A stretch of DNA of 42,202 nucleotides from Thiohalobacter sp. (GTDB lineage Bacteria > Pseudomonadota > Gammaproteobacteria > Thiohalobacterales > Thiohalobacteraceae): positions 1-42,202 of the forward strand of contig JALWSQ010000229.1 of assembly GCA_026993645.1 (NCBI GenBank), in the 5' to 3' direction. The translations under genes and the position numbers were made by a program. This document shows positions 12,230-27,075 of the stretch, piece by piece (within the stretch, counting starts at the first letter, position 1; the number at the start of each line of letters is the position of its first letter). Under the pieces are notes generated by a model, which ran no database searches, was not told where the DNA came from, and saw only the letters and a list, made by a program, of their open reading frames with translations.

Positions 12230-12361
12230 GAATCCACCTCGGCAAGGGACCGGACAGGCAGGCTGCCGCGGCCGGGATCCCCTGCTAGCAGGGCCCCTCG
12301 GCGCCCATTTGTCAAGACTGCACAGTCGATCAGTATCGTCTTATACTCTAATCGAGTAGCT

Positions 12362-12406
12362 GGCCCGGGTATGTCGAAATATCTTACAACTTTACATTCC
12401 CGGGCC
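12362..12406. repeat. Inverted repeat in the AT-richer exeA upstream region
   Basis: GGCCCGGGTATG (12362-12373) and CATTCCCGGGCC (12395-12406) are complementary at 11 of 12 positions, separated by a 21-nt AT-rich spacer. Confidence 0.5.
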
Positions 12407-12594
12407 CGCGCCTCGGCCGGCTGCTGAATGCAACCCACTGTTTTGCCGGCATGCCACCCCGCGGCACAGGCCTTGCTAGTGTATAGAACAAGGACTGCCG
12501 CGAAAACAGGCACAGCATGGAAGAAGGCTGGCCGCCAACCCGTCTTCCTGGTTGCGGCCGACAACAACAGGCTTGCGTCGAGAGGTAATGTCCA

Positions 12595-12768
12595 ATGAAT
12601 ACGTCGGTAAGAAAGGAGATCAAGGGGCAGCGGGTCACTGCCCGGCCGGTGTTCAAGGGTGGCGTCCGTCCGGCCTACTGGCTGGGCGCGGTCAACGACC
12701 ACACCCTGCCGCGTGTCTTCCCCAGCGCCCTGGACGTGTTCCGGTTCGTGGAACAGCAGCAGCATTGA
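12595..12768 (+). CDS. Hypothetical small protein (57 aa), below the ORF-track cutoff
   Basis: ATG 12595 has GAGAGG 9 nt upstream. Translation is MNTSVRKEIKGQRVTARPVFKGGVRPAYWLGAVNDHTLPRVFPSALDVFRFVEQQQH. By hand count 47 of 56 codons end in G/C, like genuine genes here. I recognise no family. Confidence 0.4.
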   Translation: MNTSVRKEIKGQRVTARPVFKGGVRPAYWLGAVNDHTLPRVFPSALDVFRFVEQQQH

Positions 12769-12792
12769 GCGGGATACGGCGCGGAGTCATGG

Positions 12793-12812
12793 ATTCCCGC
12801 CTGCGCGGGAAT
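12793..12812. repeat. REP-like palindrome ATTCCCGC-CTGC-GCGGGAAT
   Basis: Perfect 8-bp arms with a 4-nt loop. This ATTCCC...GGGAAT palindrome type resembles intergenic REP/dRS3-like repeats in other proteobacteria (from memory). Only one copy is in this window. Confidence 0.5.
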
Positions 12813-12823
12813 GGCGGGGGTTT

Positions 12824-12855
12824 CCTCACCCTTCACCCCTTGCCCCTCACTCACC
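12824..12855. repeat. Degenerate heptamer tract (CCTCACC CTTCACC CCTTGCC CCTCACT CACC)
   Basis: Period-7 C-rich repeat, related to the CCCCTCA heptamers at 39014-39035. Confidence 0.45.
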
Positions 12856-12887
12856 GATGCGCACGGCCCTTCAGGCCTTTGCGCATC
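12856..12887 (-). terminator. Nested hairpin downstream of the alpha/beta-hydrolase gene (no U-tract)
   Basis: GATGCGCA (12856-12863) pairs with TGCGCATC (12880-12887). An inner GGCC-CTTCA-GGCC hairpin lies within. The structure is 28 nt past the hydrolase stop on the minus strand, and no T-run follows it. Confidence 0.3.
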
Positions 12888-12914
12888 CTACAGCCGCTCA
12901 CACCTTGCCTAGGG

Positions 12915-13541
12915 TCAGTCGATGTGTTCCAGCAGCAACTGCCGCAGCAGGTTGAGCCGGCCATGGAAGAAATGACCGACGCCGTCCGGCGTGACCAGCC
13001 GGGGCGGCGGCCGCTGACGCCCGGCCCAGTCCAGCACCGCTTGCGGTGAGACCACCTCGTCGTCCCACCCCTGGATCAGCAGCCAGGGGCAGTCCGGCCC
13101 CCGCGGCGTGGCCCGCTCCGACCCGGCCAGCAGGCGAACCGCCGGTGCCACGGTGATCAGGCGGGCCGGTGCCTCCTGCCGCGCCGCGCGCCAGGCGATG
13201 GCACCGCCGAAGGAGAACCCGGCCAGCCACAGCGGCAGCCCGCTCAACCCCGGCTGCGCACCCGCCCAGCGGCGCACGGCGGCCAGATCCTCGGTTTCCC
13301 CCCGACCCTCGTCGTAAACGCCTTCACTCGCCCCCACGCCGCGGAAATTGAAGCGGATACTCGCCAGCCCCCGTTCACGGCAGGTCCGGGCCAGGTAGTC
13401 CACCACCTTGTTGCGCAGGCTGCCACCGTACAACGGATGGGGATGGCACAGGACCACCACCGCCCTGGGCGCCGTCCCCGCGGGTGGCTCCAGCAACAGT
13501 TCCAGCGCCCCCGCCGACCCTGCGACGAACCGCCGTCCCAC
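12915..13541 (-). CDS. Alpha/beta-fold hydrolase (COG2945-like)
   Basis: 208 aa with VVLCHPHPLYGG..RNKVV, a nucleophile-elbow-like GFSFGG and a C-terminal HFF. GTG start lies 3 nt after the nrdJb stop. Confidence 0.8.
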   Translation of the reverse strand: MGRRFVAGSAGALELLLEPPAGTAPRAVVVLCHPHPLYGGSLRNKVVDYLARTCRERGLASIRFNFRGVGASEGVYDEGRGETEDLAAVRRWAGAQPGLSGLPLWLAGFSFGGAIAWRAARQEAPARLITVAPAVRLLAGSERATPRGPDCPWLLIQGWDDEVVSPQAVLDWAGRQRPPPRLVTPDGVGHFFHGRLNLLRQLLLEHID

Positions 13542-13544: not shown

Positions 13545-14234
13545 CTAGCCGCACTTGGAATCGCCGCAGTTGAGGCAGGTCATGCAACCATCCATCTGCA
13601 CCACGGCGCGGGTCTGGCACTTGGCGCAGAGCTGGGCCCCGGCCGGAAAATCCCCCTCGGTCCCGGTGGCCGCGTCGCCCTGCACCGCCTCGTACTGGGC
13701 CCGCTTCTCCTCCACCAGCCTGCGCTGATGCTCGTCCAGACCCTCGTCCTGCAGCATGCCGATCATGCGCAGGTGGTACTCGATGGCATCACCGATCTCG
13801 GCCACCAGCGACGGCATGTAGCGGCCGCCCTTCTTGAAATACCCCCCCTTGGGGTCGAACACCGAGCGCAGCTCCTCCACCAGGAAGGTGACGTCACCGC
13901 CCTTGCGGAACACCGCCGAAATGATCCGGGTCAGGGCCACGATCCACTGGAAGTGGTCCATGTTCTTGGAGTTGATGAAGATCTCGAACGGCCGGCGCAG
14001 CTCGTGCTCGGTGCCGGGATTGAGCACGATGTCGTTGATGGTCACATAGAGCGCATGCTCGGACAGCGGGGTCTTGATCTTGTAGGTGGAGCCCAGCAGT
14101 ATCTCCGGCCGCTCCAGCTTCTCGTGCAGCTGGACCACCTTCTCCTCCGCCGGCGCGGTCGCTGCCGGCATCTCCTCGGCCTCGTCCCGGGCCACGCTGT
14201 AGCCGACTATCTTCCTGTCGATCCTGATCGCCAT
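13545..14234 (-). CDS. nrdJb: Class II (adenosylcobalamin-dependent) ribonucleotide reductase, small C-terminal polypeptide
   Basis: 229 aa: GSTYKIKTPLSEHALYVTIND...PFEIFINSKNMDHFQWIVALTRIISAVFRKGG, with a C-terminal Cys cluster CAKCQ...CMTCLNCGDSKCG. GGAG lies upstream of ATG 14234, and the start is 21 nt after the nrdJa stop. Confidence 0.85.
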   Translation of the reverse strand: MAIRIDRKIVGYSVARDEAEEMPAATAPAEEKVVQLHEKLERPEILLGSTYKIKTPLSEHALYVTINDIVLNPGTEHELRRPFEIFINSKNMDHFQWIVALTRIISAVFRKGGDVTFLVEELRSVFDPKGGYFKKGGRYMPSLVAEIGDAIEYHLRMIGMLQDEGLDEHQRRLVEEKRAQYEAVQGDAATGTEGDFPAGAQLCAKCQTRAVVQMDGCMTCLNCGDSKCG

Positions 14235-14255
14235 CTCGATGTCTCCGTATTCGCG

Positions 14256-16409
14256 TCAGAACTTGCCGTAATAGCCTTCCTTCAGGGCATCGTAGAGATT
14301 GGCCGCGGTGTGCGTCTCACCGTCGTATTCCACCTCCTCGTTGCCCTTGACCTCCAGCCGGGAACCATCCTCCAGCTCGAACACATAGGTGGTGTTCTCC
14401 AGGTCCCGTTCCTTGACCAGCACCCCCTGGAAGGCCTCGGGATTGAAGCGGAAGGTGGTGCAACCCTTGAGCCCCTGCTCGTAGGCATAGAGATAGATGT
14501 CCTTGAATGCCTCGTATGGATAGTCCGTGGGCACGTTGGCCGTCTTGGAAATGCTGGAGTCGATCCACTTCTGGGCCGCCGCCTGGATGTCCACGTGCGC
14601 CTTGGGCGTGATGTCGTCCGAGGCGACGAAATAGTCCGGCAACCGGCTGCGTTCGTCCTCCGCCCCCGGCATGGCGTCCGGGTTCACCCGCTCGCGGTAG
14701 GCCAGCAGTTCGTAGGAATAGACATCCACCTTCTCCTTGGTCTTGCGCCCCTCCCGGATCACGTTGCGGAAGTAATGGTGTGCGAACGAGGGCTCGATGC
14801 CGTTGCTGGCGTTGTTGGCCAGCGACAGGGAGATGGTACCGGTGGGCGCGATGGACGAGTGGTGGGTGAACCGGGCGCCCTCCTCGGCCAGCGCCGCCAC
14901 CAGCTCCGGTTCCACCTGGGCCAGCTGTTGCATGTACCTGCTGTAGCGGGCATGGAGCACCTTGCCCGGTACCCGGTCCCCCGGCTTCCAGCCATCGGCC
15001 CGCATCTCGGGCCGCCGGGCCAGCATCTCCTCGGTGACCACGAAGGTCTCCTCCATGATGGGGGCCGGCCCCTTCTCCCGCGCCAGTTCCAGTGCCGTGC
15101 GCCAGCCCTGGACCGCCAGCTCCCGCGCCACCCGCTCGGTGAACGCCAGGGACTCCGGCGAACCATAGCGTTGCCGCAACAACGTCAGCGCCGACCCCAG
15201 GCCCAGGAACCCCATGCCGTGCCGCCGCTTGCGCAGGATCTCGTCGCGCTGGCCATCCAGTGGCAGGCCGTTGATCTCCACCACGTTGTCCAGCATGCGG
15301 GTGAAGATGGCCACCACCTCGCGGAACCGCGCCCAGTCGAACCGCGCCCGGGCGGTGAAGGGTTCGAGCACGAAGCGGGTGAGGTTCACCGAGCCGAGCA
15401 GGCAGGAACCATAGGGCGGCAGCGGCTGTTCCCCACAGGGGTTGGTGGCGCGGATGTTCTCGCACCACCAGTTGTTGTTCATCTCGTTGACCTTGTCGAT
15501 GAGGATGAACCCGGGCTCGGCGAAATCATAGGTGGAGGCCATGATGACATCCCACAGGCGCCGGGCCCGGATGGTGCGATAGATGCGGCAGGCCACCTCG
15601 CCGCGGTCGTTGGTGATGTAGCCCTCGCGGGTGGGCCAGCGCCGCCACACCACCTGGTCCGGATCGTCCAGCGCCAGCCCCTCCATCTCCAGCTCGGTCC
15701 GGGTCAGGGGGAAGGCCAGCTGCCAGCGTTCGTCCGCCTTCACCGCCTGGATGAACTCCTCCGTGATCAGCAGCGACAGGTTGAACTGGCGCAGCCGGCC
15801 GTCCTCGCGCTTGGCGCGGATGAAGTCCATCACGTCCGGGTGACCGATGTCGAAGGTCGCCATCTGCGCCCCGCGGCGGCCACCGGCCGAGGAGACGGTG
15901 AAACACATCTTGTCGTAGATGTCCATGAAGGACAGGGGTCCCGAGGTATAGGCCCCGGCCCCGGCGACATAGGCCCCGCGCGGGCGCAGGGTGGAGAACT
16001 CGTAGCCGATACCGCAGCCGGCCTTCAGCGTCAGTCCCGCCTCGTGGACCTTCTCCAGGATGTCATCCATGGAATCCCGGATGGTGCCGGAAACGGTGCA
16101 GTTGATGGTCGAGGTGGCCGGCTTGTGTTCCCAGGCCCCGGCATTGGAGATGATGCGCCCGGCCGGGATGGCCCCCTGGCGCAGGGCCCAAAGGAACCGC
16201 TCGTACCAGTGGGCCCGCTTCTCCTCCGTCTCCTCCACCTCGGCCAGGGCCCGCGCGACCCGGCGGTAGGTCGCATCGATATCGGCATCCACCGCCTCGC
16301 CGGTCTTGGATTTGAGGCGGTACTTCGTGTCCCAGATGTCGGCCGAGGCCGGCTGCAGGGGGATGTCCGCCGGGGTATCGCTCACTGCCTCCAAGTGGAT
16401 GCTGTTCAT
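14256..16409 (-). CDS. nrdJa: Class II (adenosylcobalamin-dependent) ribonucleotide reductase, large polypeptide
   Basis: RNR catalytic-core motifs INCTVSG, GGRRGAQMATFDIGHPDV, ATNPCGEQPLPPYGSCLLGS and SSIAPTGTISL. I chose ATG 16409 (MNSIHLEAV) because AGGAGG lies 5 nt upstream. Confidence 0.92.
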   Translation of the reverse strand: MNSIHLEAVSDTPADIPLQPASADIWDTKYRLKSKTGEAVDADIDATYRRVARALAEVEETEEKRAHWYERFLWALRQGAIPAGRIISNAGAWEHKPATSTINCTVSGTIRDSMDDILEKVHEAGLTLKAGCGIGYEFSTLRPRGAYVAGAGAYTSGPLSFMDIYDKMCFTVSSAGGRRGAQMATFDIGHPDVMDFIRAKREDGRLRQFNLSLLITEEFIQAVKADERWQLAFPLTRTELEMEGLALDDPDQVVWRRWPTREGYITNDRGEVACRIYRTIRARRLWDVIMASTYDFAEPGFILIDKVNEMNNNWWCENIRATNPCGEQPLPPYGSCLLGSVNLTRFVLEPFTARARFDWARFREVVAIFTRMLDNVVEINGLPLDGQRDEILRKRRHGMGFLGLGSALTLLRQRYGSPESLAFTERVARELAVQGWRTALELAREKGPAPIMEETFVVTEEMLARRPEMRADGWKPGDRVPGKVLHARYSRYMQQLAQVEPELVAALAEEGARFTHHSSIAPTGTISLSLANNASNGIEPSFAHHYFRNVIREGRKTKEKVDVYSYELLAYRERVNPDAMPGAEDERSRLPDYFVASDDITPKAHVDIQAAAQKWIDSSISKTANVPTDYPYEAFKDIYLYAYEQGLKGCTTFRFNPEAFQGVLVKERDLENTTYVFELEDGSRLEVKGNEEVEYDGETHTAANLYDALKEGYYGKF

Positions 16410-16530
16410 CACGCCTCCTGTTCCCTGTGATCCCTGGCAGGTCACCGGGCACTCCCGGCCATGCCTGCCACTTTGCGCGTCACCCGCCCCTTCCCCTGTC
16501 GCCGGGGATCGGGGTCTGACCTGGATGAAG

Positions 16531-16546
16531 ACACAAGATATTGTGC
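16531..16546. promoter_or_regulatory. NrdR box (second, imperfect)
   Basis: ACACAAGATATTGTGC compared with the published NrdR consensus acaCwAtATaTwGtgt. It lies just downstream of the candidate nrdJ -10 element. Confidence 0.55.
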
Positions 16547-16556
16547 CTGGACCTCA

Positions 16557-16585
16557 AGGCTAGTCTGCCCGCCAGAGACTGTCAA
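16557..16585 (-). promoter_or_regulatory. Candidate sigma70 promoter for nrdJab
   Basis: The minus strand reads TTGACA (16585-16580), a 17-nt spacer, then TAGCCT (16562-16557). An AT-rich phased tract lies immediately upstream. Confidence 0.35.
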
Positions 16586-16598
16586 GGTTTTTTAAGTT

Positions 16599-16624
16599 AT
16601 TGTTTTATATTGTTTTTAATTGTT
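16599..16624. repeat. Three ATTGTT direct repeats with exact 10-bp phasing
   Basis: ATTGTT occurs at 16599, 16609 and 16619 within ttATTGTTTTatATTGTTTTtaATTGTTcc. The unit resembles an NrdR half-site (ATTGTGT) and occupies the UP-element position of the candidate nrdJ promoter. Confidence 0.5.
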
Positions 16625-16660
16625 CCTCTTGAAAATCATCGGCTTCCGCCCTGGATCAAA

Positions 16661-16682
16661 GAAACACAATATATTGTGTTTC
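16661..16682. promoter_or_regulatory. NrdR box (perfect 22-bp palindrome)
   Basis: GAAACACAATATATTGTGTTTC. Its core ACACAATATATTGTGT matches the NrdR consensus at every specified position. It lies in the nrdJ/hsp20 divergent region. Confidence 0.75.
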
Positions 16683-16704
16683 TGATATTGCTCCACGCCA
16701 CCGG

Positions 16705-16736
16705 CCCTTGATCCGGTGATCCTCTGTGCCCATATA
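16705..16736 (+). promoter_or_regulatory. Sigma32 (RpoH)-type heat-shock promoter for hsp20-cbpA-cbpM
   Basis: CCCTTGATC (-35, TTGATC at 16708-16713), a 14-nt spacer, then GCCCATATA (16728-16736). The consensus is CTTGAAA-N13-15-CCCCATnT. It sits about 50 nt upstream of the hsp20 ATG. Confidence 0.55.
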
Positions 16737-16787
16737 TCTGCCCATCGACAAACACTTCGTTGAACAGAACAGGCAGGAGAGAGACCG

Positions 16788-17243
16788 ATGAGCATGGTAC
16801 GTTACGAACCCTGGAGCCTGCTGAACCAGCTCCAACGCGAGATCGACCAGATCTTCAATGCCCCCGCGGCCCGCAAGCCGGGCAACGGCGACGGCTCCAA
16901 CGTGACTGCGGCCGACTGGGTACCGGCGGTGGACATCCGCGAGGAGCCCGACCGCTTCGTCATCCATGCCGATGTGCCCGGTGTCGCGCCCGAGGACATC
17001 GAGGTGAACATGGAGAACGGCGTCCTCACCATCCGCGGCGAACGCAAGGACGACAGCGAGGAGGAAAAGGAAGGCTACAAGCGCATCGAGCGGGTGCGCG
17101 GCACCTTCTTCCGCCGCTTCAGCCTGCCGGACACCGCCGATGCCGAGCAGATCAGCGCCAAGGCCCGCAACGGGGTACTGGAGGTGGTCATCCCCAAGCA
17201 GGCGCAGGTCCAGCCCCGACGCATCCGGGTGGAGGGGGAATAA
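16788..17243 (+). CDS. Hsp20/alpha-crystallin family small heat-shock protein (IbpA-like)
   Basis: AGGAGAGAG RBS. Alpha-crystallin domain: WVPAVDIREEPDRFVIHADVPGV..EDIEV....GVLTIRGER...ERVRGTFFRRFSLP...NGVLEVVIPK. Confidence 0.93.
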   Translation: MSMVRYEPWSLLNQLQREIDQIFNAPAARKPGNGDGSNVTAADWVPAVDIREEPDRFVIHADVPGVAPEDIEVNMENGVLTIRGERKDDSEEEKEGYKRIERVRGTFFRRFSLPDTADAEQISAKARNGVLEVVIPKQAQVQPRRIRVEGE

Positions 17244-17302
17244 GGCGCGGGGCCGGCCCCCGTCCCCACCCCGGCCTGCGCCGGTTCTGAACGGGAGACG
17301 AC

Positions 17303-18283
17303 ATGGAATTCAAGGACTACTACCAGATCCTGGGCGTTTCCCGTGACGCCACCCAGGATGAGATCAAGCGGGCCTACCGCAAGCTGGCCCGCAGGTATCA
17401 TCCGGACGTCAGCAAGGAACAGGACGCCGAGACCCGGTTCAAGGAGGTCAACGAGGCCTACGAGGTCCTCAAGGATCCGGAGAAAAGGGCCGCCTACGAC
17501 CAGCTCGGCGCCCAGTGGCGGGCGGGGCAGGAATTCCGGCCACCACCGGACTGGGATGCCGGCTTCGAATTCACCGGTGGAGATTTCACCGGTGCCGACG
17601 CCAGCCGGTTCAGTGACTTCTTCGAATCCCTGTTCGGCCGGGGCAGCCCCTTCACCCACACCGGAACCGGCCGCCGCGGGCACCGGATGCGCATGCGCGG
17701 GGAGGATCACCATGCCAAGATCCTCATCCGCCTGGAGGACGCCTACCACGGCGGCCAGCGCAGTATCAGCCTGCGCCACCCCGAGCTGGACCAGCGCGGG
17801 GCGGTGGTCTACCGCCAGCGCAACCTGAACGTGCAGATCCCCAAGGGCATCACCGCCGGCCAGCAGATCCGGCTGGCCGGCCAGGGCGGGGCCGGCGTCA
17901 ACGGTGGACCCAATGGCGACCTCTACCTGGAGGTGGAGTTCGAGGCCCACCCCCTGTTCACGGTGGACGGGCGCGACGTCACCCTGTCGTTGCCCGTCAC
18001 GCCCTGGGAGGCCGCCCTCGGGGCCCGGATCGAGGTGCCGACCCTGGGTGGACCGGTGGATCTCAAGATCCCGCCCGGTTCCCAGACCGACCGCAAGCTG
18101 CGCCTGCGCGGCCGCGGCCTGCCCGGGCGTGGGCGCCAGGCGGCGGGCGACCAGTACGTGGTGATCAAGATCATGACGCCACCCGCCCGCAGCGAAACGG
18201 CGCGCAGCCTGTATCAGCGCATGGCGCGGGAACTGGCCTGGAATCCACGGCAACGACTGGAGCAGTACAGTGGTGCAGCCTGA
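17303..18283 (+). CDS. cbpA: Curved-DNA-binding protein CbpA (DnaJ-class co-chaperone without zinc finger)
   Basis: J-domain DYYQILGVSRDATQDEIKRAYRKLARRYHPDV, a Gly/Phe-like region, and C-terminal DnaJ_C repeats (GEDHHAKILIRLEDAYHGG...GDLYLEVEFEAHPLF). No CxxCxGxG zinc finger is present. Confidence 0.9.
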   Translation: MEFKDYYQILGVSRDATQDEIKRAYRKLARRYHPDVSKEQDAETRFKEVNEAYEVLKDPEKRAAYDQLGAQWRAGQEFRPPPDWDAGFEFTGGDFTGADASRFSDFFESLFGRGSPFTHTGTGRRGHRMRMRGEDHHAKILIRLEDAYHGGQRSISLRHPELDQRGAVVYRQRNLNVQIPKGITAGQQIRLAGQGGAGVNGGPNGDLYLEVEFEAHPLFTVDGRDVTLSLPVTPWEAALGARIEVPTLGGPVDLKIPPGSQTDRKLRLRGRGLPGRGRQAAGDQYVVIKIMTPPARSETARSLYQRMARELAWNPRQRLEQYSGAA

Positions 18284-18617
18284 GACCCATCCCCTGCAGG
18301 GCATCCTGCTCGACGAGGCCTGCGAGTTCAGCCTGCGCGAGCTGGCCACCGCCTGCGACACCAGTGCCGAGATCCTCATCGCCATGGTCGAGGAAGGCCT
18401 GCTGGAACCGCGGGGGGTGGATCCGCGCCGCTGGCGGTTCCCGGCCGAGGCCCTGGTGCGGGCCCGCACCGCCCTGCATCTGCAGCGGGACCTGGGCGTG
18501 AATCTCGCCGGGGCTGCCCTGGCGGTGGACCTGCTGGAGGAGATCCGCCGCCTGCGACGGCGCCTGCAGGTGCTGCAGACCGCCCTGGAGCACCATGTCA
18601 GCGAGCTCAAGTGGTGA
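18270..18617 (+). CDS. cbpM: Chaperone-modulatory protein CbpM (MerR-like)
   Basis: Lies immediately after cbpA and overlaps it by 14 nt (GTG start). FSLRELATACDTSAEILIAMVEEGLLEP...RARTALHLQRDLGVNLAGAALAVDLLEEIRRLR follows the CbpM pattern. Confidence 0.8.
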   Translation: MVQPETHPLQGILLDEACEFSLRELATACDTSAEILIAMVEEGLLEPRGVDPRRWRFPAEALVRARTALHLQRDLGVNLAGAALAVDLLEEIRRLRRRLQVLQTALEHHVSELKW

Positions 18618-21600
18618 GGCGGCGGTAGATATCGGAAACCTTGAGCGGCAGCTTGCGCACCTCGTCCACCAGGGTATAGCCCACCGCCCCGTACATGTGC
18701 GGCAGGTAGTCACGGGCCTCGGTGTCGATGGTGATGCAATAGGGATGGATGCCCTGCTGCTTGATCTCGATCAGGGCCTTGCGGGTGTCCTCGATGCCGT
18801 ATTCGCCGCGGTAGCTGTCGTAGTCGTCGGGCTTGCCGTCGGACAGGGTGATCAGCAAGCGGGTGCGCGCCTCGATCTTCGCCAGCATTCCACCCAGGTG
18901 GCGGATGGCCACTCCCATGCGGGTGTAGTCGCGGGGCTCGATGCCGCTGATGCGGGCCCGCACCGCCTCGTCGTAGGGTTCGTCGAAGCGCTTGACCCGG
19001 TAGACCTCGCAGCGCTTGCGGGTCATGCCGGAGAAACCATAGATGGCATAGCGGTCGCCCAGGGTCTCCAGTGATTCGCTGAGCAGCAGCAGGGCCTCGC
19101 GCTCGGCGTCGTTGATCCAGCCCTTGGTGGAACCGCTCATGTCCACCATGAACATCACCGCGATGTCGCGCTCCACCTTGCGCATGCGGGTGAACAGGCG
19201 GTCGGTCATCTCCATGCCGGCACAGACGTCTGCGTGGGCCTCGACCAGGGCGTCGATGTCGATGTCGTCGCCGTGGGGTTGCTTCTTCAGCAGCCGTTCC
19301 TCGCCGCGCAAGGCCTCGAACACCCGCCGCAGGCTCTTCACCAGACCGCTGTAGCGGGCCAGGGTCCGCTGGGCGAAATCGTCGTGGCGCGGTGTCACCT
19401 CCAGCTCGCGCAGGACCGTCCAGTTCTTGCGGTAGTGCTGGCGCTCGTAGTCCCACTCGTTGTAGTGGAAGGCACCCTCCTCGTGGTAGGTGCCCTGCCA
19501 TACGCTGGTGGCATCCTGGGCCTCGCCCGCCGGCACCCCGGCGTAATAGGCACCGGGCCCGGCCGCCTGCAGGTAGTCCTCGGGGATCTGCCCCAGGTCC
19601 TGGAGTATGGACATCATGGTCCCGCGCACATCGTCGGGCGGGGCCAGGGGCTTGCCGTCCAGGGTGATCTCATAGGCCACGCCGTCCGGGGCCTCGGCAT
19701 CCGCCACCTCGCGCAATCCCAGGCGCTGCGCCATGGACCGGGCCTCGTCGGGGTCGTCCCCGGCCTGGCCATCGCGCGCCGCGGACTCCAGCCGTGCCAG
19801 GTTGTCCTGCCAGCGCAGCAGGGCCACGCGAAACGCCTGGCGGTCCCGTTCCAGCCGGGCCGTGCGTGCCCGGGCCACCGCGTCCGGCTGGATGGTCCCC
19901 ATGTAGCAGAGGGGCGGGGGCAATGGCGCTGCCGCCAGCCGCTCCAGCCAGCGCAGGCTGTCACCGACCCCGGCCCCCGGCCGGGCCAGCGCCCGGGCCG
20001 CCGCCTGCCAGGCCTCCGGCAACGCGGCCGGGCCGTCGAGCCGTGCCGCCAGATCGGCCATGCGGCGGGCCTCGCCGGGCAGGGTACGCGCGATGCAGGC
20101 CGCCAGGCGCAGTTGCTCCAGGCGGTGGAAGCGGGCCAGCCGGTCCCGGTCCGCCCCCTCCAGCACCGCCAGGGCCTCCGCCCGCCAGGTGCCGAACCAG
20201 GTCTGGGCCCACTGGTGGACCACCATGGCGCGGTAGAGGGCGAAATTGTCGGCCCGCTCGGAACAGCGGTTGACGACCGGGGGCAGGAACAGGCTGTCGG
20301 TGTCCGTATAGGGTACCTCGGCGGCCTCCACCCGCAGCCGCCGCCCGTTCAGCCCCTGGACGAAGGCCTCCAGCACCGGGGCCGTGTCGGCCAGGGCCAC
20401 CGCCTGGCCCCCGGTGTGCACGAACTCGGCAAAATGGCCGACCTCGCGCAGGGCGGCGATGCCGGCATGGAGCCCCCGGGTGTCGAAGGCATCCATGGCA
20501 TGGATGAGCCAGGCCTCGACCCCGTCCAGGTCCATGCGCTCCAGCGCCTCGGCGGCGAAGGCGGCGAACTGGTAGGCCATCTCGGAATTGGTGTGGGCGG
20601 TGACCTCGACCCAGTGCAGGATGAAATCCTGCTGCTCGCGGGCGAACTCCGCCAGCCGGCGAGCCGGACCCGCCGCCGTGCGGCGCGAGGACAGCACTGC
20701 GTCCAGGGGCACGTCCAGGCGGGCCTCGATCTGTTCCGCCGTCAGGGGCACCTGGCGCGCGTCACCCAGCAGGCGGTCGGCGGACTCGTCGTACCAGCGC
20801 GCGGCCACCCCCGCGGCCAGGCGCCGGCCGTCGGCCGTCTCCAGCCCCACCTGCAACGCCTCCACCTTGCGTCCGGGCAGGGCATCCCGCAGCAGCTGCG
20901 CCAGGCTGGATTCACTCCAGGAACCGGGGCGGATGGCCAGCCAGATGCCCCGGCACTGGTCGCTGACCAGCTGTGGCAGCCGCTTGGCCAGCTTGGCCAG
21001 GTCCACGGCGATGTCCCAGGAACGGTGATGCGGACCGCGACCGATGAAGGGCGGGGTGACCACCACCAGGTCGAACCGCTGCCGGGCGCGGATGGCCGCC
21101 TCCACGTAGGCCAGCCCGTCCTCCTGGACGAACTCGACGTTGTCCCGGCCGACGTTGGCGGCGGCCCGGTCAAGCACGTCCGCGTCCGCGTCCACGTGTA
21201 CCACCGTCGCCCCGGCGTTCAGGGCGCAGGCGGTCACCAGGCCCTCGCCGGCGAACAGGTGCAGGACCCGGATCTCGTCCATGTGATAACAGCCCGCCAG
21301 CCGTTCCTGCGCCCAGCGACCGCAGAGCAGCTGCTCCGGCTTGAGCCCGATGCGCCCGTCCGCATCCAGCCGGCAGTGGAAGGGAATCCCGTCCAGCGCG
21401 AACACCCAGTGGCCGGGCAGGCCCTGGCGCCGCGGTGCCCAGTGCCCGCCCTCCACGCCTTCCTGGACGTAGGTCCAGTCGGCATCCCAGTGCCGCAGCC
21501 GCCGTGCCCCCTCGGCCCAGCGCCAGGGTCGTTCCACCACGAAGGAACCGAACCGCTCCAGGCAGCGACCGCGGCCGAAGTCGAGCAGCTCGTACTCGTC

Positions 21601-21636
21601 GGCGGGGGTCTGCAGGAAGAGGGGCTGGCTGTCCAT
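18607..21636 (-). CDS. CbbO/NorD-type VWA protein with in-frame N-terminal SAM-methyltransferase-like module (1009 aa)
   Basis: aa 1-285 resemble a small class I MTase (YELLDFGRGRCLERFG, VLHLFAGEGLVTACALNAGATVVHVDA, DLVVVTPPFIGRG). aa 300 onward resemble CbbO (SSRRTA..., QQDFILHWVEV, NSEMAYQF). The C-terminal VWA has MIDAS VDMSGST (nt 18610-19170). There is no stop between the modules. Confidence 0.8.
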   Translation of the reverse strand: MDSQPLFLQTPADEYELLDFGRGRCLERFGSFVVERPWRWAEGARRLRHWDADWTYVQEGVEGGHWAPRRQGLPGHWVFALDGIPFHCRLDADGRIGLKPEQLLCGRWAQERLAGCYHMDEIRVLHLFAGEGLVTACALNAGATVVHVDADADVLDRAAANVGRDNVEFVQEDGLAYVEAAIRARQRFDLVVVTPPFIGRGPHHRSWDIAVDLAKLAKRLPQLVSDQCRGIWLAIRPGSWSESSLAQLLRDALPGRKVEALQVGLETADGRRLAAGVAARWYDESADRLLGDARQVPLTAEQIEARLDVPLDAVLSSRRTAAGPARRLAEFAREQQDFILHWVEVTAHTNSEMAYQFAAFAAEALERMDLDGVEAWLIHAMDAFDTRGLHAGIAALREVGHFAEFVHTGGQAVALADTAPVLEAFVQGLNGRRLRVEAAEVPYTDTDSLFLPPVVNRCSERADNFALYRAMVVHQWAQTWFGTWRAEALAVLEGADRDRLARFHRLEQLRLAACIARTLPGEARRMADLAARLDGPAALPEAWQAAARALARPGAGVGDSLRWLERLAAAPLPPPLCYMGTIQPDAVARARTARLERDRQAFRVALLRWQDNLARLESAARDGQAGDDPDEARSMAQRLGLREVADAEAPDGVAYEITLDGKPLAPPDDVRGTMMSILQDLGQIPEDYLQAAGPGAYYAGVPAGEAQDATSVWQGTYHEEGAFHYNEWDYERQHYRKNWTVLRELEVTPRHDDFAQRTLARYSGLVKSLRRVFEALRGEERLLKKQPHGDDIDIDALVEAHADVCAGMEMTDRLFTRMRKVERDIAVMFMVDMSGSTKGWINDAEREALLLLSESLETLGDRYAIYGFSGMTRKRCEVYRVKRFDEPYDEAVRARISGIEPRDYTRMGVAIRHLGGMLAKIEARTRLLITLSDGKPDDYDSYRGEYGIEDTRKALIEIKQQGIHPYCITIDTEARDYLPHMYGAVGYTLVDEVRKLPLKVSDIYRRLTT

Positions 21637-21668: not shown

Positions 21669-22481
21669 TCAGAACAGGGAGGCGCTCAGCTCGTTCACCG
21701 CCACCAGCATCTCCGGGTCGTCGGTGAGGGCCTGGGCGATGGCGTTGCGGCAGGCGATCACCGGCTCCACCCCGGAGACCATGAGCTTGGCGGCGTGCAC
21801 CAGCAGGCGGGTGCTGGCCCCCTCGTCCAGGCCGCTGCCCTTGAGGTTGCGCGTCATCTGGGCGAAGCGAACCAGCTGAGCGGCGGTGTCGGCATCCACG
21901 CCGCTCTCGGTGGCGACGATGCGCGCCTCCAGCTCCGGGGCCGGGTAGTCGAAGGCCAGGGCGACGAAACGTTGACGGGTGCTCTGCTTGAGATCCTTGA
22001 GCACGCTCTGGTAACCGGGATTGTAGGAGATGGCCAGGCAGAATTCGGGGGGGGCCTGGAGGATTTCCCCCAGCTTTTCCATGGGCAGCACCCGCCGGTC
22101 GTCGGCCAGGGGATGGATGACCACGGTGGTGTCCTTGCGCGCCTCCACGATCTCGTCGAGGTAGCAGATGGCGCCGCTGCGCACCGCCCGCGCCAGGGGG
22201 CCGTCCACCCACCGGGTCTCGCCGCCGGTGACCAGGAACCGCCCCACCAGGTCCGAGGCGGTCAGGTCGTCGTGGCAGGAGACCGTGATCAGCGGCCGGC
22301 CCAGGCGCCAGGCCATGTGTTCCATGAACCGGGTCTTGCCGCAGCCGGTCGGCCCCTTGAGCAGGCAGGGCAGCCCGTTGCGGAACGCCGCCTCGAACAC
22401 GGCGATCTCGTTGCCCTGCGGCTCGTAGTAGGGCTCCTCGGTGATGAAATACTCTTCCGGCTTGAGTGCGTGCGCCTTCAC
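21669..22481 (-). CDS. CbbQ/NorQ/NirQ-family MoxR-type AAA+ ATPase
   Basis: [46 protein letters not shown] (Walker A), Walker [11 protein letters not shown], and a CbbQ-like C-terminus. I chose GTG 22481 (GGGGA 6 nt upstream), which gives 270 aa, the usual CbbQ length. The longer ORF-track start is rejected. Confidence 0.9.
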
Positions 22482-22887: not shown

Positions 22888-24174
22888 ATGTCGGAGGTAA
22901 TCGCAACCAACCAGACGATCCTGGTGGTGGGCGGAGGGATCGCCGGGATGACCGCCGCACTCGAGGCAGCGGAGTGCGGCAAGCAGGTCATCCTGGTGGA
23001 GAAGAATCCCTCCGTCGGCGGCCGCGTCGGTCAGCTGTACAAGTACTTTCCCAAGCTGTGCCACCCCAAGTGCGGCCTGGAGATCAACCTGCGCCGCATG
23101 AAGGCCAACCGCAACCTGCGGCTGCTGACCATGACCGAGGTCACCGCGGTCACGGGCGAGGCCGGCAACTACCAGGTCAGCCTCCGCACCCAGCCCCGTT
23201 ACGTCACCGAGAACTGCACCGCCTGCGGCGAATGCGCCCGGGCGGTGGAGGCCGAGTTCGACAACGAGCACAACTTCGGCCTGGGCAAGCGCAAGGGGGC
23301 CTACCTGCCCTACAGCCTGGCCTATCCCATGCGCTACGTGCTGGATCCGCGCATCATCGGCACCGACGATGCCACCCGGGCCAAGGAGGCCTGCAAGTAC
23401 GACGCCATCGACCTGGACATGCAGCCCCAGGAGACCCAGATCACGGTCGGCGCCATCATCTGGGCCACCGGCTGGCGCCCCTACGATGCCGCCCGTATCC
23501 AGCCCTACGGCTACGACCGCTTCGCCAACGTCATCACCAGCGTGGAGTTCGAGCGCATGGCCGACCCCCATGGCCCCACCGGCGGCAAGCTGTTGCGGCC
23601 CTCGGACGGCAAGGAGGCCAAGAACGTGGCCTTCATCCAGTGCGCCGGCTCGCGCGACCGCAACCATCTCAAGCACTGCTCGCGCATCTGCTGCATGGCC
23701 ACGCTCAAGCAGACCACCTATCTGCGGGACAAGTACGGCGACGACTTCAAGGCGTCGGTCTACTACATCGACATCCGCGCCATCGACCGTATCGACGATT
23801 TCTACCAGAAGGTGCGGGCCGATGAGAACGTCAGTTTCATCAAATCCAAGGTGGCCAGCATCACCGAAGACCGGGAGACCGGCAATCCGGTGCTGAACGG
23901 CGTGGATACCGAGGGGTATCACCGCTACAGCAACCCCCACGACCTGGTGGTCCTGGCCATCGGCATGGAGCCCAGCGTACCGGCGGGGGAATTTCCCGTC
24001 GACGTGGTCCTGAACGAGGAGGGCTTCGTCCAGCAGGACGAGGCCAACGGCGCCTTCTTCGCCGCCGGCTGCTCGTCGGACGCGCTGGACGTGAACCGGG
24101 CGGTGCAGAACGCCACCGCCAGCGCGCTGCGTGCCATTCAGGTTGTTAACCGGGTTGCCGGAACGGAGGTCTGA
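22888..24174 (+). CDS. qmoA: QmoA-like HdrA-family flavoprotein
   Basis: GGAGGA RBS. FAD fold ILVVGGGIAGMTAALEAAECG. The HdrA/Qmo-type motif FPKLCHPKCGLEIN is present, and there are no ferredoxin Cys clusters. qmoB follows directly. Confidence 0.85.
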   Translation: MSEVIATNQTILVVGGGIAGMTAALEAAECGKQVILVEKNPSVGGRVGQLYKYFPKLCHPKCGLEINLRRMKANRNLRLLTMTEVTAVTGEAGNYQVSLRTQPRYVTENCTACGECARAVEAEFDNEHNFGLGKRKGAYLPYSLAYPMRYVLDPRIIGTDDATRAKEACKYDAIDLDMQPQETQITVGAIIWATGWRPYDAARIQPYGYDRFANVITSVEFERMADPHGPTGGKLLRPSDGKEAKNVAFIQCAGSRDRNHLKHCSRICCMATLKQTTYLRDKYGDDFKASVYYIDIRAIDRIDDFYQKVRADENVSFIKSKVASITEDRETGNPVLNGVDTEGYHRYSNPHDLVVLAIGMEPSVPAGEFPVDVVLNEEGFVQQDEANGAFFAAGCSSDALDVNRAVQNATASALRAIQVVNRVAGTEV

Positions 24175-24176
24175 CC

Positions 24177-26429
24177 GTGTCTGAAGCCAAGATTGGAGCC
24201 TATATCTGCAAGGGGTGTGGCCTGGGCGACCGCCTGGACACCAGCCAGCTGGTCACCATCGCCGAGCGCGAAGGCAAGGCCGCCATCGCCCGCGAGCACG
24301 ACTTCCTGTGCTCGGAGGCCGGCGTCCAGATGATTCGCGACGACATCGCCAACGAGGGCGTGAACCGGGTGGTCATCGCCGCCTGTTCCCGCCGCGCCAA
24401 GACCGACGCCTTCGACTTCGACGGCGTCTGCATCAACCGCACCAACCTGCGCGAGGGGGTGATCTGGGTCCGGCCCGACACCGACGAGGATCGCGAGACC
24501 ACCCAGGAGATGGCGGCCGACTACGTGCGCATGGGCTGTGCCGAGATCAAGCACATGAACCCGCCCACCCCGAACGAGAAGACCGATGCCAGCAGCCGCA
24601 TCCTGGTGGTGGGCGGCGGCATCTCCGGCATGACCGCCGCGCTGGAGGCGGCCCGCGCCGGCTACCCGGTCACCCTGGTGGAGAAGAGCGGGCAACTGGG
24701 TGGCGTCGCGGCCGAGCTGGTCAAGCGGGTGCCGGAACGGGCCCCCTATGCCGACCCGGAGGATACCGGGGTGGCCGCGCTGGCCGCCGAGATCGAGGCC
24801 AACGAGCTGATCGAGGTCTGCCTCAACTCGACCCTGGCGCGGACCTCGGGGGCCCCCGGCTGCTTCTCCGCCGACATCGCCACCGAGTCCGGCACCACCC
24901 GCACCGAGAACTTCGGGGCCATCATCCAGGCCTCGGGCTTCAAGCCCTACGATGCCAGCCAGCTGCCCGAGCTGGGCTATGGCAAGACCCCCGACGTGGT
25001 CGACCAGATGGGACTGGAGGCGCTGGTGCGCGCGGCCGGTGACGGCCCGGTCAAGCGCCCGTCCGACGGCAAGGAGGTGGAGCGGGTGCTGTTCGTGCAG
25101 TGCGCCGGCCAGCGCAGCCAGAAGGAGGGCCACCTGCCCTACTGCTCCGGCCACTGCTGCCTGACCTCCATCAAGCAGGCGATGTACTTCAAGGATCGCA
25201 ACCGCGACATCGACACCGAGATCCTGTACACCGACCTGCGCACCCCGGGCGCCCCGGGCGAGGACTTCTATCGCAGCGGCCAACAGAAGGGCATCACCTT
25301 CGTCAAGGGCGTGGTCGAGGACGTCGCCAGCAGCGGCAACGGCGCCAAGGTCAAGTACAAGGACATCATCCTGGACGAGACCATCGAGCGCGACGTGGAC
25401 CTGGTGGTCCTTGCCACCGGCATGGTGCCCAACTCCGGCGTCGACATCGAGGCGGTATCCGCGCCCAACGTAGAGGGCGCGGAGGACGATGCCGGGGACA
25501 ACGGTGGTGACAGCGTGGAGATTCCGGTGGAATCCATCCTCAACCTGACCTATCGCCAGGGCAAGGACATTCCCCAGCTCAAGTACGGCTTCACCGACTC
25601 CCACTTCATCTGCTTCCCCTACGAGTCGCGCCGTACCGGCATCTATGCCACCGGCCCCGTGCGCCGGCCCATGGACATGATGTCGGCCATCGAGGATGCG
25701 ACCGGTGCCGCCCTCAAGGCCATCCAGGCGGTGGAGAATGCCAAGCTGGGCCGGGCCGCGCACCCGCGCTCGGGTGACCTGTCCTTCCCCAGCTTCCGCA
25801 AGGAGGGCTGCACCCAGTGCAAGCGCTGCACCGTGGAATGCCCGTTCGGCGCCATCGACGAGGACGAGCAGCGCTATCCGCAGTTCAACGAGTCCCGCTG
25901 CCGCCGCTGCGGCACCTGCATGGGCGCCTGCCCGGTGCGGGTGATCTCGTTCGAGAACTACTCGGTGGACACCGTCGGCCAGCAGATCAAGAACGTGGAC
26001 ATCCCCGACGAGTTCGACGAGAAGCCGCGCATCCTGGTCCTGGCCTGCGAGAACGATGCCTACCCGGCGCTGGACATGGCGGCCCAGAGCGGCCAGCAGT
26101 ACAGCCAGTGGGCACGCGTCATCCCCGTGCGTTGCCTGGGTTCGGTCAACACCATCTGGGTGACCGATGCCCTGAACAGCGGCTACGACGGCGTCGTCCT
26201 CATGGGCTGCCAGAAGGGCGAAAACTACCAGTGCCACTTCGTCAAGGGATCGGAGATGGCCCATTACCGCATGAGCAAGATCGACGACACCCTGTCGCAG
26301 CTCAATCTGGAAAAGGAACGGGTGGCAACCTACGAGGTCGCCATTACCGACATCGAACGCGCGCCCGGGCTGATCAACGAGATGGCCGAAACCATCGACA
26401 AGATCGGCATGAGCCCATTCAAGTTCTAG
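24177..26429 (+). CDS. qmoB: QmoB-like HdrA-family flavoprotein with 2x[4Fe-4S] and MvhD-like C-terminal domain
   Basis: GTG start lies 2 nt after the qmoA stop. N-terminal CKGCG, FAD fold ILVVGGGISGMTAALEAARAG, ferredoxin motifs CTQCKRCTVECP and CRRCGTCMGACP, and an MvhD-like ILVLACENDAY...RCLGSVN...GCQKGENYQCHF. Confidence 0.85.
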   Translation: MSEAKIGAYICKGCGLGDRLDTSQLVTIAEREGKAAIAREHDFLCSEAGVQMIRDDIANEGVNRVVIAACSRRAKTDAFDFDGVCINRTNLREGVIWVRPDTDEDRETTQEMAADYVRMGCAEIKHMNPPTPNEKTDASSRILVVGGGISGMTAALEAARAGYPVTLVEKSGQLGGVAAELVKRVPERAPYADPEDTGVAALAAEIEANELIEVCLNSTLARTSGAPGCFSADIATESGTTRTENFGAIIQASGFKPYDASQLPELGYGKTPDVVDQMGLEALVRAAGDGPVKRPSDGKEVERVLFVQCAGQRSQKEGHLPYCSGHCCLTSIKQAMYFKDRNRDIDTEILYTDLRTPGAPGEDFYRSGQQKGITFVKGVVEDVASSGNGAKVKYKDIILDETIERDVDLVVLATGMVPNSGVDIEAVSAPNVEGAEDDAGDNGGDSVEIPVESILNLTYRQGKDIPQLKYGFTDSHFICFPYESRRTGIYATGPVRRPMDMMSAIEDATGAALKAIQAVENAKLGRAAHPRSGDLSFPSFRKEGCTQCKRCTVECPFGAIDEDEQRYPQFNESRCRRCGTCMGACPVRVISFENYSVDTVGQQIKNVDIPDEFDEKPRILVLACENDAYPALDMAAQSGQQYSQWARVIPVRCLGSVNTIWVTDALNSGYDGVVLMGCQKGENYQCHFVKGSEMAHYRMSKIDDTLSQLNLEKERVATYEVAITDIERAPGLINEMAETIDKIGMSPFKF

Positions 26430-26438
26430 GAGCCGGTT

Positions 26439-27065
26439 ATGAGCGACTACAACCAGCAGATGATCGAGCAATTCCGTGGCAACTTCCTCAAGGAGGTGGA
26501 ATCCAACGTCGAGGAAGGCGAGTGGGTCAAGATGTGCATGCAGTGCGGCGTCTGTTCGGGCTCCTGCCCGTTCGGCCCCCACTGGGCACACCCGCCGCAG
26601 GAGATCTTCATGATGATCCGGGAAGGGGAACGCGAGCAGGTGCTCACCTCCGACTCCATGTGGATGTGCACCTCCTGCTACAACTGCATCGTGCGCTGCC
26701 CCCGCGGCCTGCCCATCACCCACATCATGCATGGCCTGGCCACCTACGCCAAGCGCCTGGGCCTGGCACCCAAGGAACAGCCGACCGCCAAGTTCGCCCA
26801 GCTGTTCTGGGACAACCTGACCAAGACCGGCCGGGTCAACGAGCTCAAGCTGGGGCTGGCCCTGTACTTCATGAACGGCTTCAGCGAGGGCATCAAGACC
26901 TCGCTCAAGATGAAGGACATCGGCCTCGGCATGTGGAAGACCAAGCGGCTCAACCCCATGGAGATGGTGGGCGGTCATTCCTGCAAGGACACCAAGGGGC
27001 TGCAGGCCATCCTGGCCAAGGCCCAGGAAATCGAGGACGCCAAGATCGGCCGGTCTGGCGCCTGA
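26439..27065 (+). CDS. hdrC: HdrC-like iron-sulfur subunit
   Basis: Two CxxCxxCxxxCP-type clusters (CMQCGVCSGSCP, CTSCYNCIVRCP). It sits between qmoB and the hdrB-like gene. Confidence 0.85.
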   Translation: MSDYNQQMIEQFRGNFLKEVESNVEEGEWVKMCMQCGVCSGSCPFGPHWAHPPQEIFMMIREGEREQVLTSDSMWMCTSCYNCIVRCPRGLPITHIMHGLATYAKRLGLAPKEQPTAKFAQLFWDNLTKTGRVNELKLGLALYFMNGFSEGIKTSLKMKDIGLGMWKTKRLNPMEMVGGHSCKDTKGLQAILAKAQEIEDAKIGRSGA

Positions 27066-27075
27066 GGAGAATCCC

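Follow-up and report, generated by a model that had tools for sequence, protein, structure and literature searches.

The gene described here lies in a 42,202-nucleotide (nt) stretch of DNA from Thiohalobacter sp. (contig JALWSQ010000229.1), referred to below as the window. On the minus strand, positions 18607 to 21636 encode a protein of 1009 amino acids in which a methyltransferase-like domain is joined through a linker to an adaptor of the CbbO/NorD type with a VWA domain. The initial annotation described one uninterrupted 1009-codon frame after cbbQ/norQ, and this is confirmed, with the frame running without an internal stop codon from the ATG at 21636 to the stop codon at 18607 to 18609. 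The open frame extends 5' to 22524, where it overlaps cbbQ in another frame; between the cbbQ stop codon (21669 to 21671) and the ATG at 21636, the frame of the fusion gene contains no start codon. The adaptor lies directly 3' of the cbbQ/norQ-type gene (21669 to 22481, minus strand), whose stop codon is 32 nt upstream of the ATG and which encodes a MoxR AAA+ ATPase of 270 amino acids from the GTG at 22481, with Pfam matches to AAA_5 (1.8e-33) and CbbQ_C (6e-30).

All parts of the fusion gene lie on the minus strand. Residues 1 to 283 (20788 to 21636) show the fold of a 2IGT/RlmI-like class I S-adenosylmethionine (SAM) methyltransferase in an apparently catalytically degenerate form, as judged by the match to 2igt_A, Foldseek, an AlphaFold2 model, lost invariant residues, and the ratio of nonsynonymous to synonymous substitution rates (dN/dS). 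In this module, YELLDFGRGRCLERFG covers residues 15 to 30, and VLHLFAGEGLV..ALNAGATVVHVDA covers residues 124 to 150. The motif I loop LFAGEG (residues 127 to 132; 21241 to 21258) contains Gly130 and Gly132, which are invariant in the fused family. Motif II reads HVD (residues 147 to 149; 21190 to 21198), with the acidic residue kept among 65 fused members as Asp (53) or Glu (12), and the motif IV position reads TPPF (residues 194 to 197; 21046 to 21057) within VVVTPPFIGRG (residues 191 to 201). The linker ESADRLLGDARQV comprises 13 residues (284 to 296; 20749 to 20787), the last of which is encoded by an in-frame GTG (20751 to 20749). It leads into a mostly helical CbbO-type body (residues 297 to 720; 19477 to 20748), which matches the N terminus and middle of unfused orthologs and in which the sequence LSSRRTA...QQDFILHWVEV...TNSEMAYQF begins near residue 315. 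Residues 721 to 1009 (18610 to 19476) form the VWA domain, assigned by its match to that of NorD, together with a conserved C-terminal tail; the domain contains a metal ion-dependent adhesion site (MIDAS) of the sequence DMSGS (residues 832 to 836; 19129 to 19143), and the tail reads LPLKVSDIYRRLTT (18610 to 18651). The motifs quoted in the initial annotation, namely, YELLDFGRGRCLERFG, LFAGEG, VVVTPPFIGRG, the CbbO-type start, and the MIDAS, all lie where they had been placed, and the CbbO-like part expected from about residue 300 starts near residue 297 and ends in the MIDAS-containing VWA domain.

The product of the gene is an adaptor of the VWA/MIDAS kind, the "O/D" subunit of a CbbQ/NorQ-type MoxR AAA+ remodeler. 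Residues 721 to 1008 align with the VWA domain of NorD in the cryo-electron microscopy structure 9qhd_G (E value of 9e-52; ∼40% identity), and DMSGS, Thr905, and Asp933 are invariant in 65 homologs. The tail LPLKVSDIYRRLTT is likewise invariant among homologs and aligns with the C terminus of NorD, which contacts NorQ in the NorQD structure (PMC13036017). The Pfam model VWA_2 scores 25.1 bits on the window protein (cutoff, 27). The VWA domain shows 79% identity across the family yet has the lowest AlphaFold2 confidence, with a predicted local distance difference test (pLDDT) score of 30 to 60, likely because the alignment of 65 sequences varies too little there. The VWA "finger" that enters the ATPase pore is a trait of the adaptor family and belongs to this domain modeled at a pLDDT of 30 to 60. 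The body is modeled at a pLDDT of ∼85 (residues 300 to 620); none of the NCBIfam models matches it, and a plasmid tblastn search for characterized CbbO returned only NorD-type proteins, which match the VWA domain alone.

Compared to NorQ/NorD from Paracoccus denitrificans and Jhaorihella thermophila (PDB accession numbers 9qh6 and 9qhd; PMC13036017 and PMC9976466), the window pair shows a homologous VWA domain, the MIDAS, and an aligning C-terminal ...IYR(R/Q)L, and the working model of two grips and a twisted linker probably applies to the window adaptor as well. In contrast, only the C-terminal 40% of the protein aligns (residues 721 to 1008), the body at residues 297 to 720 is not similar to that of NorD, and NorD is without a methyltransferase-like module. 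The nor context of NorD sensu stricto is absent: norCB does not occur near the window gene, and the gene map of the window contains no heme-copper oxidase or nor genes.

The CbbQO-type Rubisco activases, such as Q1O1 and Q2O2 of Acidithiobacillus ferrooxidans and the system of Halothiobacillus neapolitanus, are among the closest known systems and were reportedly described by Tsai et al. in 2015 and 2020. As generally described, they share with the window pair the MoxR AAA+ subunit with AAA_5 and CbbQ_C, followed in the order Q-O by an adaptor of ∼710 to 770 amino acids, whose C-terminal VWA/MIDAS domain recognizes an acidic residue on the client. Measured against this general description of CbbO, the window adaptor has an additional methyltransferase-like N terminus of 296 amino acids, and the members examined have qmoAB-hdrCB or aprA as neighbors instead of Rubisco genes. 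A further parallel can be found in the Mg-chelatase subunit BchD/ChlD and the cobaltochelatase subunit CobT, which are generally described as VWA/MIDAS adaptors with a degenerate N-terminal domain working with a MoxR-like or related AAA+ motor. In these proteins, it is an AAA+ module and not a methyltransferase that has degenerated, and tetrapyrrole chelatase subunits serve as clients.

Fold and residue losses of the N-terminal module

The N-terminal module is a complete class I methyltransferase fold of the 2IGT/RlmI-like type. Residues 5 to 281 match PDB entry 2igt_A, a SAM methyltransferase of 332 amino acids from Agrobacterium, with an E value of 8e-22 (phmmer). The full-length AlphaFold2 model, built from an alignment of 65 homologs, shows a pLDDT of ∼90 at residues 1 to 285 and is placed on 2igt by Foldseek with an E value of 1e-23, a template modeling (TM) score of 0.82, and a root mean square deviation of ∼2 Å over 296 columns; the matches that follow are the rRNA methyltransferases RlmI, RlmO, and RlmK. 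The reading of residues 1 to ∼285 as a complete RlmI-like methyltransferase in the initial annotation is thereby borne out. The likeness to 2IGT and the PF10672 family (RlmI/RlmK/RlmO) greatly exceeds what chance would produce and extends over the entire domain, with the N-terminal β-rich part and the Rossmann fold, and YELLDFG.G.KLERFG, motif I, and motif II are common to both. The domains differ in motif IV, where the DPP[FY]G[RH]G of the family, DPPKFGRG in 2IGT, is replaced with TPPFIGRG in the window protein, so that the exchange of the catalytic Asp for Thr pointed out earlier is found as described. The window domain further lacks an intact FPE segment, W106, Y130/T131, R168, and R180 and is joined to a VWA adaptor instead of being free-standing. 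Every Pfam methyltransferase match stays below the gathering score, the best being PF10672 with 22.7 bits (cutoff, 27), and the NCBIfam methyltransferase matches are all far under their cutoffs, in contrast to the free-standing relatives, which pass the PF10672 threshold. These subthreshold scores fit a degenerate domain.

An exhaustive HMMER search with residues 1 to 290 yields 1409 relatives of the module, 682 of them at E values of <1e-10, and nearly all are free-standing proteins of 280 to 300 amino acids with 28 to 38% identity. DPPxxG[RH]G is present in all free-standing relatives inspected, and their motif I reads F[AG]YTG. In an alignment that combines 129 free-standing representatives and 65 fused members, there are core residues common to both sets (including Y15, L17, D19, G21, E27, W50, W66, W77, L125, F128, G132, H147, D149, P196, G199, and W207) as well as ∼12 residues that are near invariant among the free-standing proteins but have been replaced in the fused set (R36, F99-P100-E101, W106, Y130-T131, N161, R168, D173, R180-E181, and D194-P195). 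Position 194 is Asp in 129/129 free-standing representatives versus 0/65 aligned fused members, which contain P, S, T, Q, or N at this site, with H in other fused representatives. The window protein itself is without F99, W106, Y130, T131, R168, and R180 and retains R36, P100, E101, N161, D173, and the PP of motif IV. The degeneracy proposed initially holds for the Asp of motif IV but extends to ∼12 family-invariant residues, with a decay that proceeds by degrees across the clade.

This gradation emerged when the key sites were mapped onto a tree of methyltransferase domains. The string of key-site residues is RFPEWYTNRDRDPP in the general free-standing family and RYPEW[AG]TNRDRDPP in a sister clade of free-standing enzymes. 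Among the fused proteins, it reads RHPAWGTNEDRDPP in the basal member L024 (loci carry L numbers), ...EDQ[QH]PP in L027 and P0124, RKPEGGENEDATPP in the window protein, and, as an example of the Thiogranum-like crown group, SHGRGGNQVDDPAP. L024 is a full-length fused open reading frame (ORF) with DPP intact, the window protein is intermediate, and the crown group is the most decayed. The family-invariant residues were lost stepwise after the fusion.

What the fused family retains is the motif I glycine loop and the acidic residue of motif II, which binds the ribose in class I methyltransferases; what it has lost are the surroundings of motif IV and the FPE segment, which in this fold surround the methionine moiety and the substrate. 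These losses make it probable that the ancestral catalysis is gone, and the domain may have remained able to bind a ligand that contains adenosine, with the ancestral reaction no longer catalyzed. We take METTL14 of the METTL3-METTL14 complex, a pseudo-methyltransferase scaffold, as a suitable comparison. Its class I fold is kept, its DPPW-type motif IV is degenerate, and it is generally described as having a binding or scaffolding role instead of catalysis; unlike the window module, whose partner is an AAA+/VWA remodeler not known to include an active paralog, METTL14 pairs with an active paralog and binds RNA. Genes of a complete SAM cycle, metK (SAM synthetase), ahcY (S-adenosylhomocysteine [SAH] hydrolase), and metF, are clustered with rsmE at positions 36202 to 40635 of the window, ∼15 kb from the methyltransferase-like domain, which is probably ordinary synteny.

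Distribution and age of the fusion

A search of 5.8 billion proteins shows at least 120 clusters of fused proteins of ∼1005 to 1020 amino acids, with 56 to 60% identity and 99 to 100% coverage relative to the window protein. Thiohalobacter sp. IOR34 is represented among them by its complete chromosome, and one protein bears the name Thiogranum longum. Loci were taken from a species-representative collection with one genome per species, and the 80 best were sorted into fused and unfused forms. Among the loci retrieved, 29 are fused and 53 carry unfused orthologs of 707 to 735 amino acids at 50 to 59% identity, in line with the statement in the initial annotation that ordinary CbbO proteins are without such a module. 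The unfused orthologs start 5 to 10 residues before PLTAxELEERLD, which corresponds to window residue ∼297, and stop codons lie 5 to 30 codons upstream of the aligned position. The architecture of the fused protein is thus a complete methyltransferase (residues 1 to 283), a 13-residue linker, and a complete adaptor. Two comparisons proposed in the initial annotation are thereby answered, as related genomes carry both forms and the N-terminal part is a methyltransferase fold absent from the unfused orthologs. Apparent long N-terminal extensions at L048, L051, and L080 contain no extra domains and were rejected, as they reflect either chance open frames in GC-rich DNA or frames that run into cbbQ.

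When the adaptor part is used for a neighbor-joining tree, the fused proteins fall into one main clade and a small second group (L023, L024, and L027) that stands apart. Among closely related pairs, dN/dS is 0.08 to 0.19 for the methyltransferase-like domain, 0.07 to 0.20 for the body, and 0.02 to 0.055 for the VWA domain; purifying selection acts on the added domain and constrains it to the same degree as the adaptor body. It is virtually certain that the fusion is real and conserved, and the in-frame fusion assumed at the outset, found in at least 120 clusters and 29 loci, proves genuine. An assembly or sequencing artifact or a recent neutral fusion, for which the poorly conserved junction linker is the sole point, has next to no probability. 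Against it stand the same uninterrupted frame, which recurs in assemblies that are independent of each other and number in the hundreds, among them the complete chromosome of strain IOR34, the dN/dS values well under 1, and the grouping of fused members on the adaptor tree. Breadth of distribution, conservation, and dN/dS refute this explanation, and the recent gene fusion and the missed stop codon or frameshift at the junction that had been considered initially are dismissed with it.

The same junction raises the question of a second product. The linker is the least conserved segment of the fused protein, with a pLDDT of <50 at residues 286 to 294, and the GTG at 20751 to 20749, the codon of residue 296, is preceded by GGGTGA 10 nt 5' of it (within 20752 to 20766), a weak Shine-Dalgarno-like match. 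The position given earlier for this internal GTG is correct, but the accompanying statement that it has no Shine-Dalgarno sequence was too strong. A 714-amino-acid adaptor translated from this GTG next to the 110-kDa fusion from the ATG at 21636 would make the module a facultative extension. Such a pair of products is improbable, even though the GTG sits exactly where the unfused orthologs begin, the GGGTGA is suitably placed at a 10-nt spacing, and the linker is the segment least conserved and least confidently modeled. The start-like GTG and the Shine-Dalgarno-like element are features seen in the window gene, and the methyltransferase-like part has no stop codon of its own and is under selection equal to that on the body, which indicates that the long form must matter. 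Two products would be compatible with a non-catalytic module and are not exclusive of it.

The sister clade of free-standing enzymes shares the neighborhood of the fusion, with degP, hsp20, a class II ribonucleotide reductase gene, and a TSCPD gene. The locus of Sulfuriflexus mobilis (L088; AP018725, positions 9354 to 11272) matches the downstream synteny of the window and carries an intact free-standing methyltransferase of 282 amino acids with DPPSFGRA. This gene lies between a truncated cbbQ relic, comprising residues 168 to 276 only (the C-terminal 109 amino acids), and VWA gene fragments in two frames. Two AT-rich free-standing methyltransferases from one metagenome (ERZ23498525; L084, positions 57 to 926, and L085, positions 2273 to 3178) show 90% mutual identity. 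One of them ends in the adaptor tail KVSDIYRR, with a remnant of LTT and a stop codon one base out of frame, and the other ends in the fusion linker, reading PLTTTEIEE, an in-frame TAA stop codon, and LDH. Both look like internal-deletion derivatives of the fused gene. The relics at these loci indicate that a still intact enzyme was once joined to the adaptor or lay adjacent to it. The lineages have diverged since, with either the remodeler kept and the enzyme decayed or the remodeler lost and the enzyme kept, and these reciprocal outcomes argue for a non-catalytic role of the module in the fusion.

Gene neighborhood and candidate client

Divergent from cbbQ, the plus strand of the window encodes a qmoA-like gene (22888 to 24174), a qmoB-like gene with an MvhD/FlpD domain (24177 to 26429), an hdrC-like gene (26439 to 27065), and an hdrB-like gene with a CCG domain (27076 to 27975), all assigned by Pfam and NCBIfam. 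With two HdrA-like flavoproteins, an HdrC-like protein, and an HdrB-like protein, positions 22888 to 27975 encode an HdrAACB or QmoAB-HdrCB module, which is treated as the electron partner of AprBA in sulfur oxidizers (PMC6397845 and PMC5944118). The divergent arrangement of cbbQ and qmoAB-hdrCB is also found in Thiohalobacter and in a contig named Thiogranum longum, and across several orders of sulfur oxidizers, cbbQ and the adaptor, fused or unfused, stand divergent from qmoA-qmoB-hdrC-hdrB (examples are L001, L004, L005, L009, L011 to L013, L016, L023, L034, L035, L038, L039, L044, L060, L065, and L081, besides others). Where at least 1.2 kb of upstream sequence is available, cbbQ precedes the adaptor in 14/21 fused and 37/48 unfused loci. 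When the upstream flank reaches 7 kb or more, qmo/hdr genes lie nearby in 11/14 fused and 12/26 unfused loci, and counting aprA with a CxxCxxCC gene as well, the numbers are 11/14 and 16/26.

The latter arrangement is typical of a betaproteobacterial group (Sulfuricella, Sulfurimicrobium, and relatives) with the order aprA, CxxCxxCC gene, cbbQ, and adaptor, tightly spaced on one strand (L056, L057, L061, L080, and L083, e.g., L083 at positions 2996 to 9099). L073 and L079 show the same order, with contigs that start within or after aprA. The aprA product of these loci matches 3gyx_A with an E value of 3e-265, and the CxxCxxCC-domain protein has ∼320 amino acids and belongs to PF03692, a family that presumably includes the flagellin lysine N-methylase FliB. 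In the rearranged fused locus L023 (positions 38 to 12949), aprA, the CxxCxxCC gene, cbbQ, qmoAB-hdrCB, and the fusion gene are still together, and at L042, the 6 kb between qmoA and cbbQ contains unrelated genes and not sat-aprBA.

No Rubisco large subunit was found in the window and 88 related loci (1.33 Mb) by a regular expression for the active-site motif or by tblastn with a spinach RbcL query, in a data set that included no positive control. Adjacency to Rubisco was rejected on this outcome, and the association with form I or form II Rubisco that characterizes CbbO sensu stricto is absent from the window and the 88 loci. The adjacency to qmoA-qmoB-hdrC-hdrB, and never to Rubisco, suggests that the client is neither Rubisco nor nitric oxide reductase. 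The link to Rubisco implied by the cbbQ/cbbO label of the initial annotation is thus not upheld, as no Rubisco or nor genes lie near members and the conserved neighbors are qmoAB-hdrCB and aprA. For Thiodictyon syntrophicum, a separate CbbQ and CbbO linked to cbbM have been reported, as have four unnamed genes that separate aprBA from qmoAB-hdrCB (PMC5944118).

Further genes surround this region. Directly after hdrB, a Calvin cycle/glycolytic cluster on the minus strand (28121 to 35249) comprises genes for class II fructose-bisphosphate aldolase, pyruvate kinase, phosphoglycerate kinase, glyceraldehyde-3-phosphate dehydrogenase, and transketolase (fba, pyk, pgk, gap, and tkt); the window encodes no phosphoribulokinase or Rubisco. 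On the 3' side of the fusion gene (13545 to 18617) lie cbpM, cbpA (DnaJ-like), hsp20, a class II ribonucleotide reductase gene, and a gene for a TSCPD protein. This proteostasis and ribonucleotide reductase block, with degP in some relatives, is conserved beside both the fusion and the free-standing methyltransferase clade. A very GC-rich segment (4267 to 8142; GC content of 0.72 to 0.76) contains a minus-strand ORF of 1245 amino acids, whose only Pfam matches are cNMP-binding and rhodanese domains near residues 190 to 367, with the remainder mostly without annotation; an antisense ORF of 983 amino acids that overlaps it has no matches.

Possible role of the module and significance

The proposed course of events starts with an adaptor of a CbbQ/NorQ-type remodeler that would have gained a complete 2IGT/RlmI-like methyltransferase at its N terminus in one lineage of gammaproteobacterial sulfur oxidizers, relatives of Thiohalobacter and Thiogranum. 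After the fusion, the module lost residues invariant in free-standing relatives step by step while keeping the fold and motifs I and II, and it would have become a pseudoenzyme that presumably methylates no longer. The model proposed for NorQD has the client held at two points, the N-terminal domain of the adaptor and the MIDAS, while the linker is twisted and stretched by ATP hydrolysis (PMC13036017). From its N-terminal position in the adaptor, the module could act as an additional "leverage point" for client docking, a third client contact, or as a sensor of an adenosine ligand that regulates engagement. Judging from the neighborhood, the client would more likely be adenosine 5'-phosphosulfate (APS) reductase or the QmoAB-HdrCB sulfite oxidation module than Rubisco or nitric oxide reductase. 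The chances that the module has a non-catalytic docking or sensing role can be put at about even, and the client can tentatively be named as Apr/Qmo, with odds somewhat short of even, from gene neighborhood only. The reading favored overall, by a little more than even chances, is that of a non-catalytic docking or ligand-binding module on a remodeler associated with the APS reductase pathway, and the new adaptor or substrate recognition domain suggested in the initial annotation remains the best description.

Several observations speak against this reading. Many class I methyltransferases function without the Asp of motif IV, and the retained R36, P100-E101, N161, D173, and PP leave a residual or altered activity of the window domain possible. 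The AlphaFold2 model has a predicted TM score of 0.39, with no confident packing between domains and a poorly modeled VWA part. Concerning the client, neither qmo/hdr nor aprA is found in 13/40 loci with long flanks, and a fused subclade (L002/L014, L003, L006 to L008, and L017 to L020) has no cbbQ in the available flanks and adjoins rhodanese, ccoS/ccoI, and ccoNOQP-ccoGH genes. The 42-kb window contains no aprBA, and Thiohalobacter has AprMBA elsewhere as well as a non-carboxysomal form IA Rubisco (PMC6504805).

An active methyltransferase with non-canonical residues, which would methylate the client or the Q/O machine during maturation, is a rather unlikely alternative to the non-catalytic module. 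It could draw on the retained fold, glycine loop, and acidic residue of motif II, on the R36, P100-E101, N161, and D173 still present in the window protein, on the purifying selection, and on the basal fused L024, whose intact DPP makes it plausible that a fused form with catalytic competence was once present or is so today. Against this, a dozen residues invariant in the 129 free-standing representatives, including D194 (129/129) and FPE, are lost together, all Pfam methyltransferase models stay below threshold, and fused members are free to have P, S, T, H, N, or Q at position 194, a pattern that resembles relaxed constraint rather than a new catalytic residue. The idea of an ordinary CbbQO Rubisco activase whose genes lie apart from those of Rubisco, with the added domain helping to dock Rubisco, has a similarly low probability. 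The AAA_5 and CbbQ_C domains of cbbQ, the CbbO-like length and architecture of the adaptor, and the Calvin cycle cluster (fba, pyk, pgk, gap, and tkt) 6 kb away in the window would suit it, as would the Rubisco type of Thiohalobacter (PMC6504805), which is usually served by CbbQO (PMC5248467). Against it stand the lack of a Rubisco large subunit within 10 kb in 88 loci and anywhere in the window, the additional and distinct Rubisco-linked CbbQ/CbbO of Thiodictyon, and the conservation of the pair beside two parts of the APS pathway in different classes (hdrAACB and aprA with the CxxCxxCC gene). A bolder version of the preferred reading, unlikely but somewhat less so than these two alternatives, sees a third client class of QO-type remodelers that mature or repair APS reductase or QmoAB-HdrCB. 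Here, the adenosine-binding half of the SAM pocket would be kept and the methionine-binding and catalytic half lost, and the module would gate the ATPase as a client clamp or as a sensor of an adenosine ligand (AMP, APS, or SAH).

To our knowledge, CbbQO/NorQD-type MoxR/VWA remodelers have two clients only, Rubisco and nitric oxide reductase, and the grip of their adaptors on the client is only beginning to be resolved structurally. Databases already hold the fused proteins under the names "NorD" or "methyltransferase domain-containing protein," both of which mislead, and for this Q/O subfamily, the Rubisco or nitric oxide reductase label is probably wrong. Literature searches returned no paper describing the CbbO-methyltransferase fusion architecture and none linking a Q/O subfamily to the APS reductase/Qmo pathway. 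The fusion represents a naturally occurring adaptor variant that has gained a well-folded module at its N terminus, and the role of this module is testable by deletion. It also offers a clean series from enzyme to pseudoenzyme, from free-standing, active-looking proteins through a fused form with DPP and the intermediate window protein to the fully decayed members, with Sulfuriflexus as the reciprocal case in which the remodeler decays and the enzyme survives. For the biology of sulfur oxidizers, this leads to the testable hypothesis that their APS reductase/QmoAB-HdrCB pathway may require an ATP-driven chaperone.

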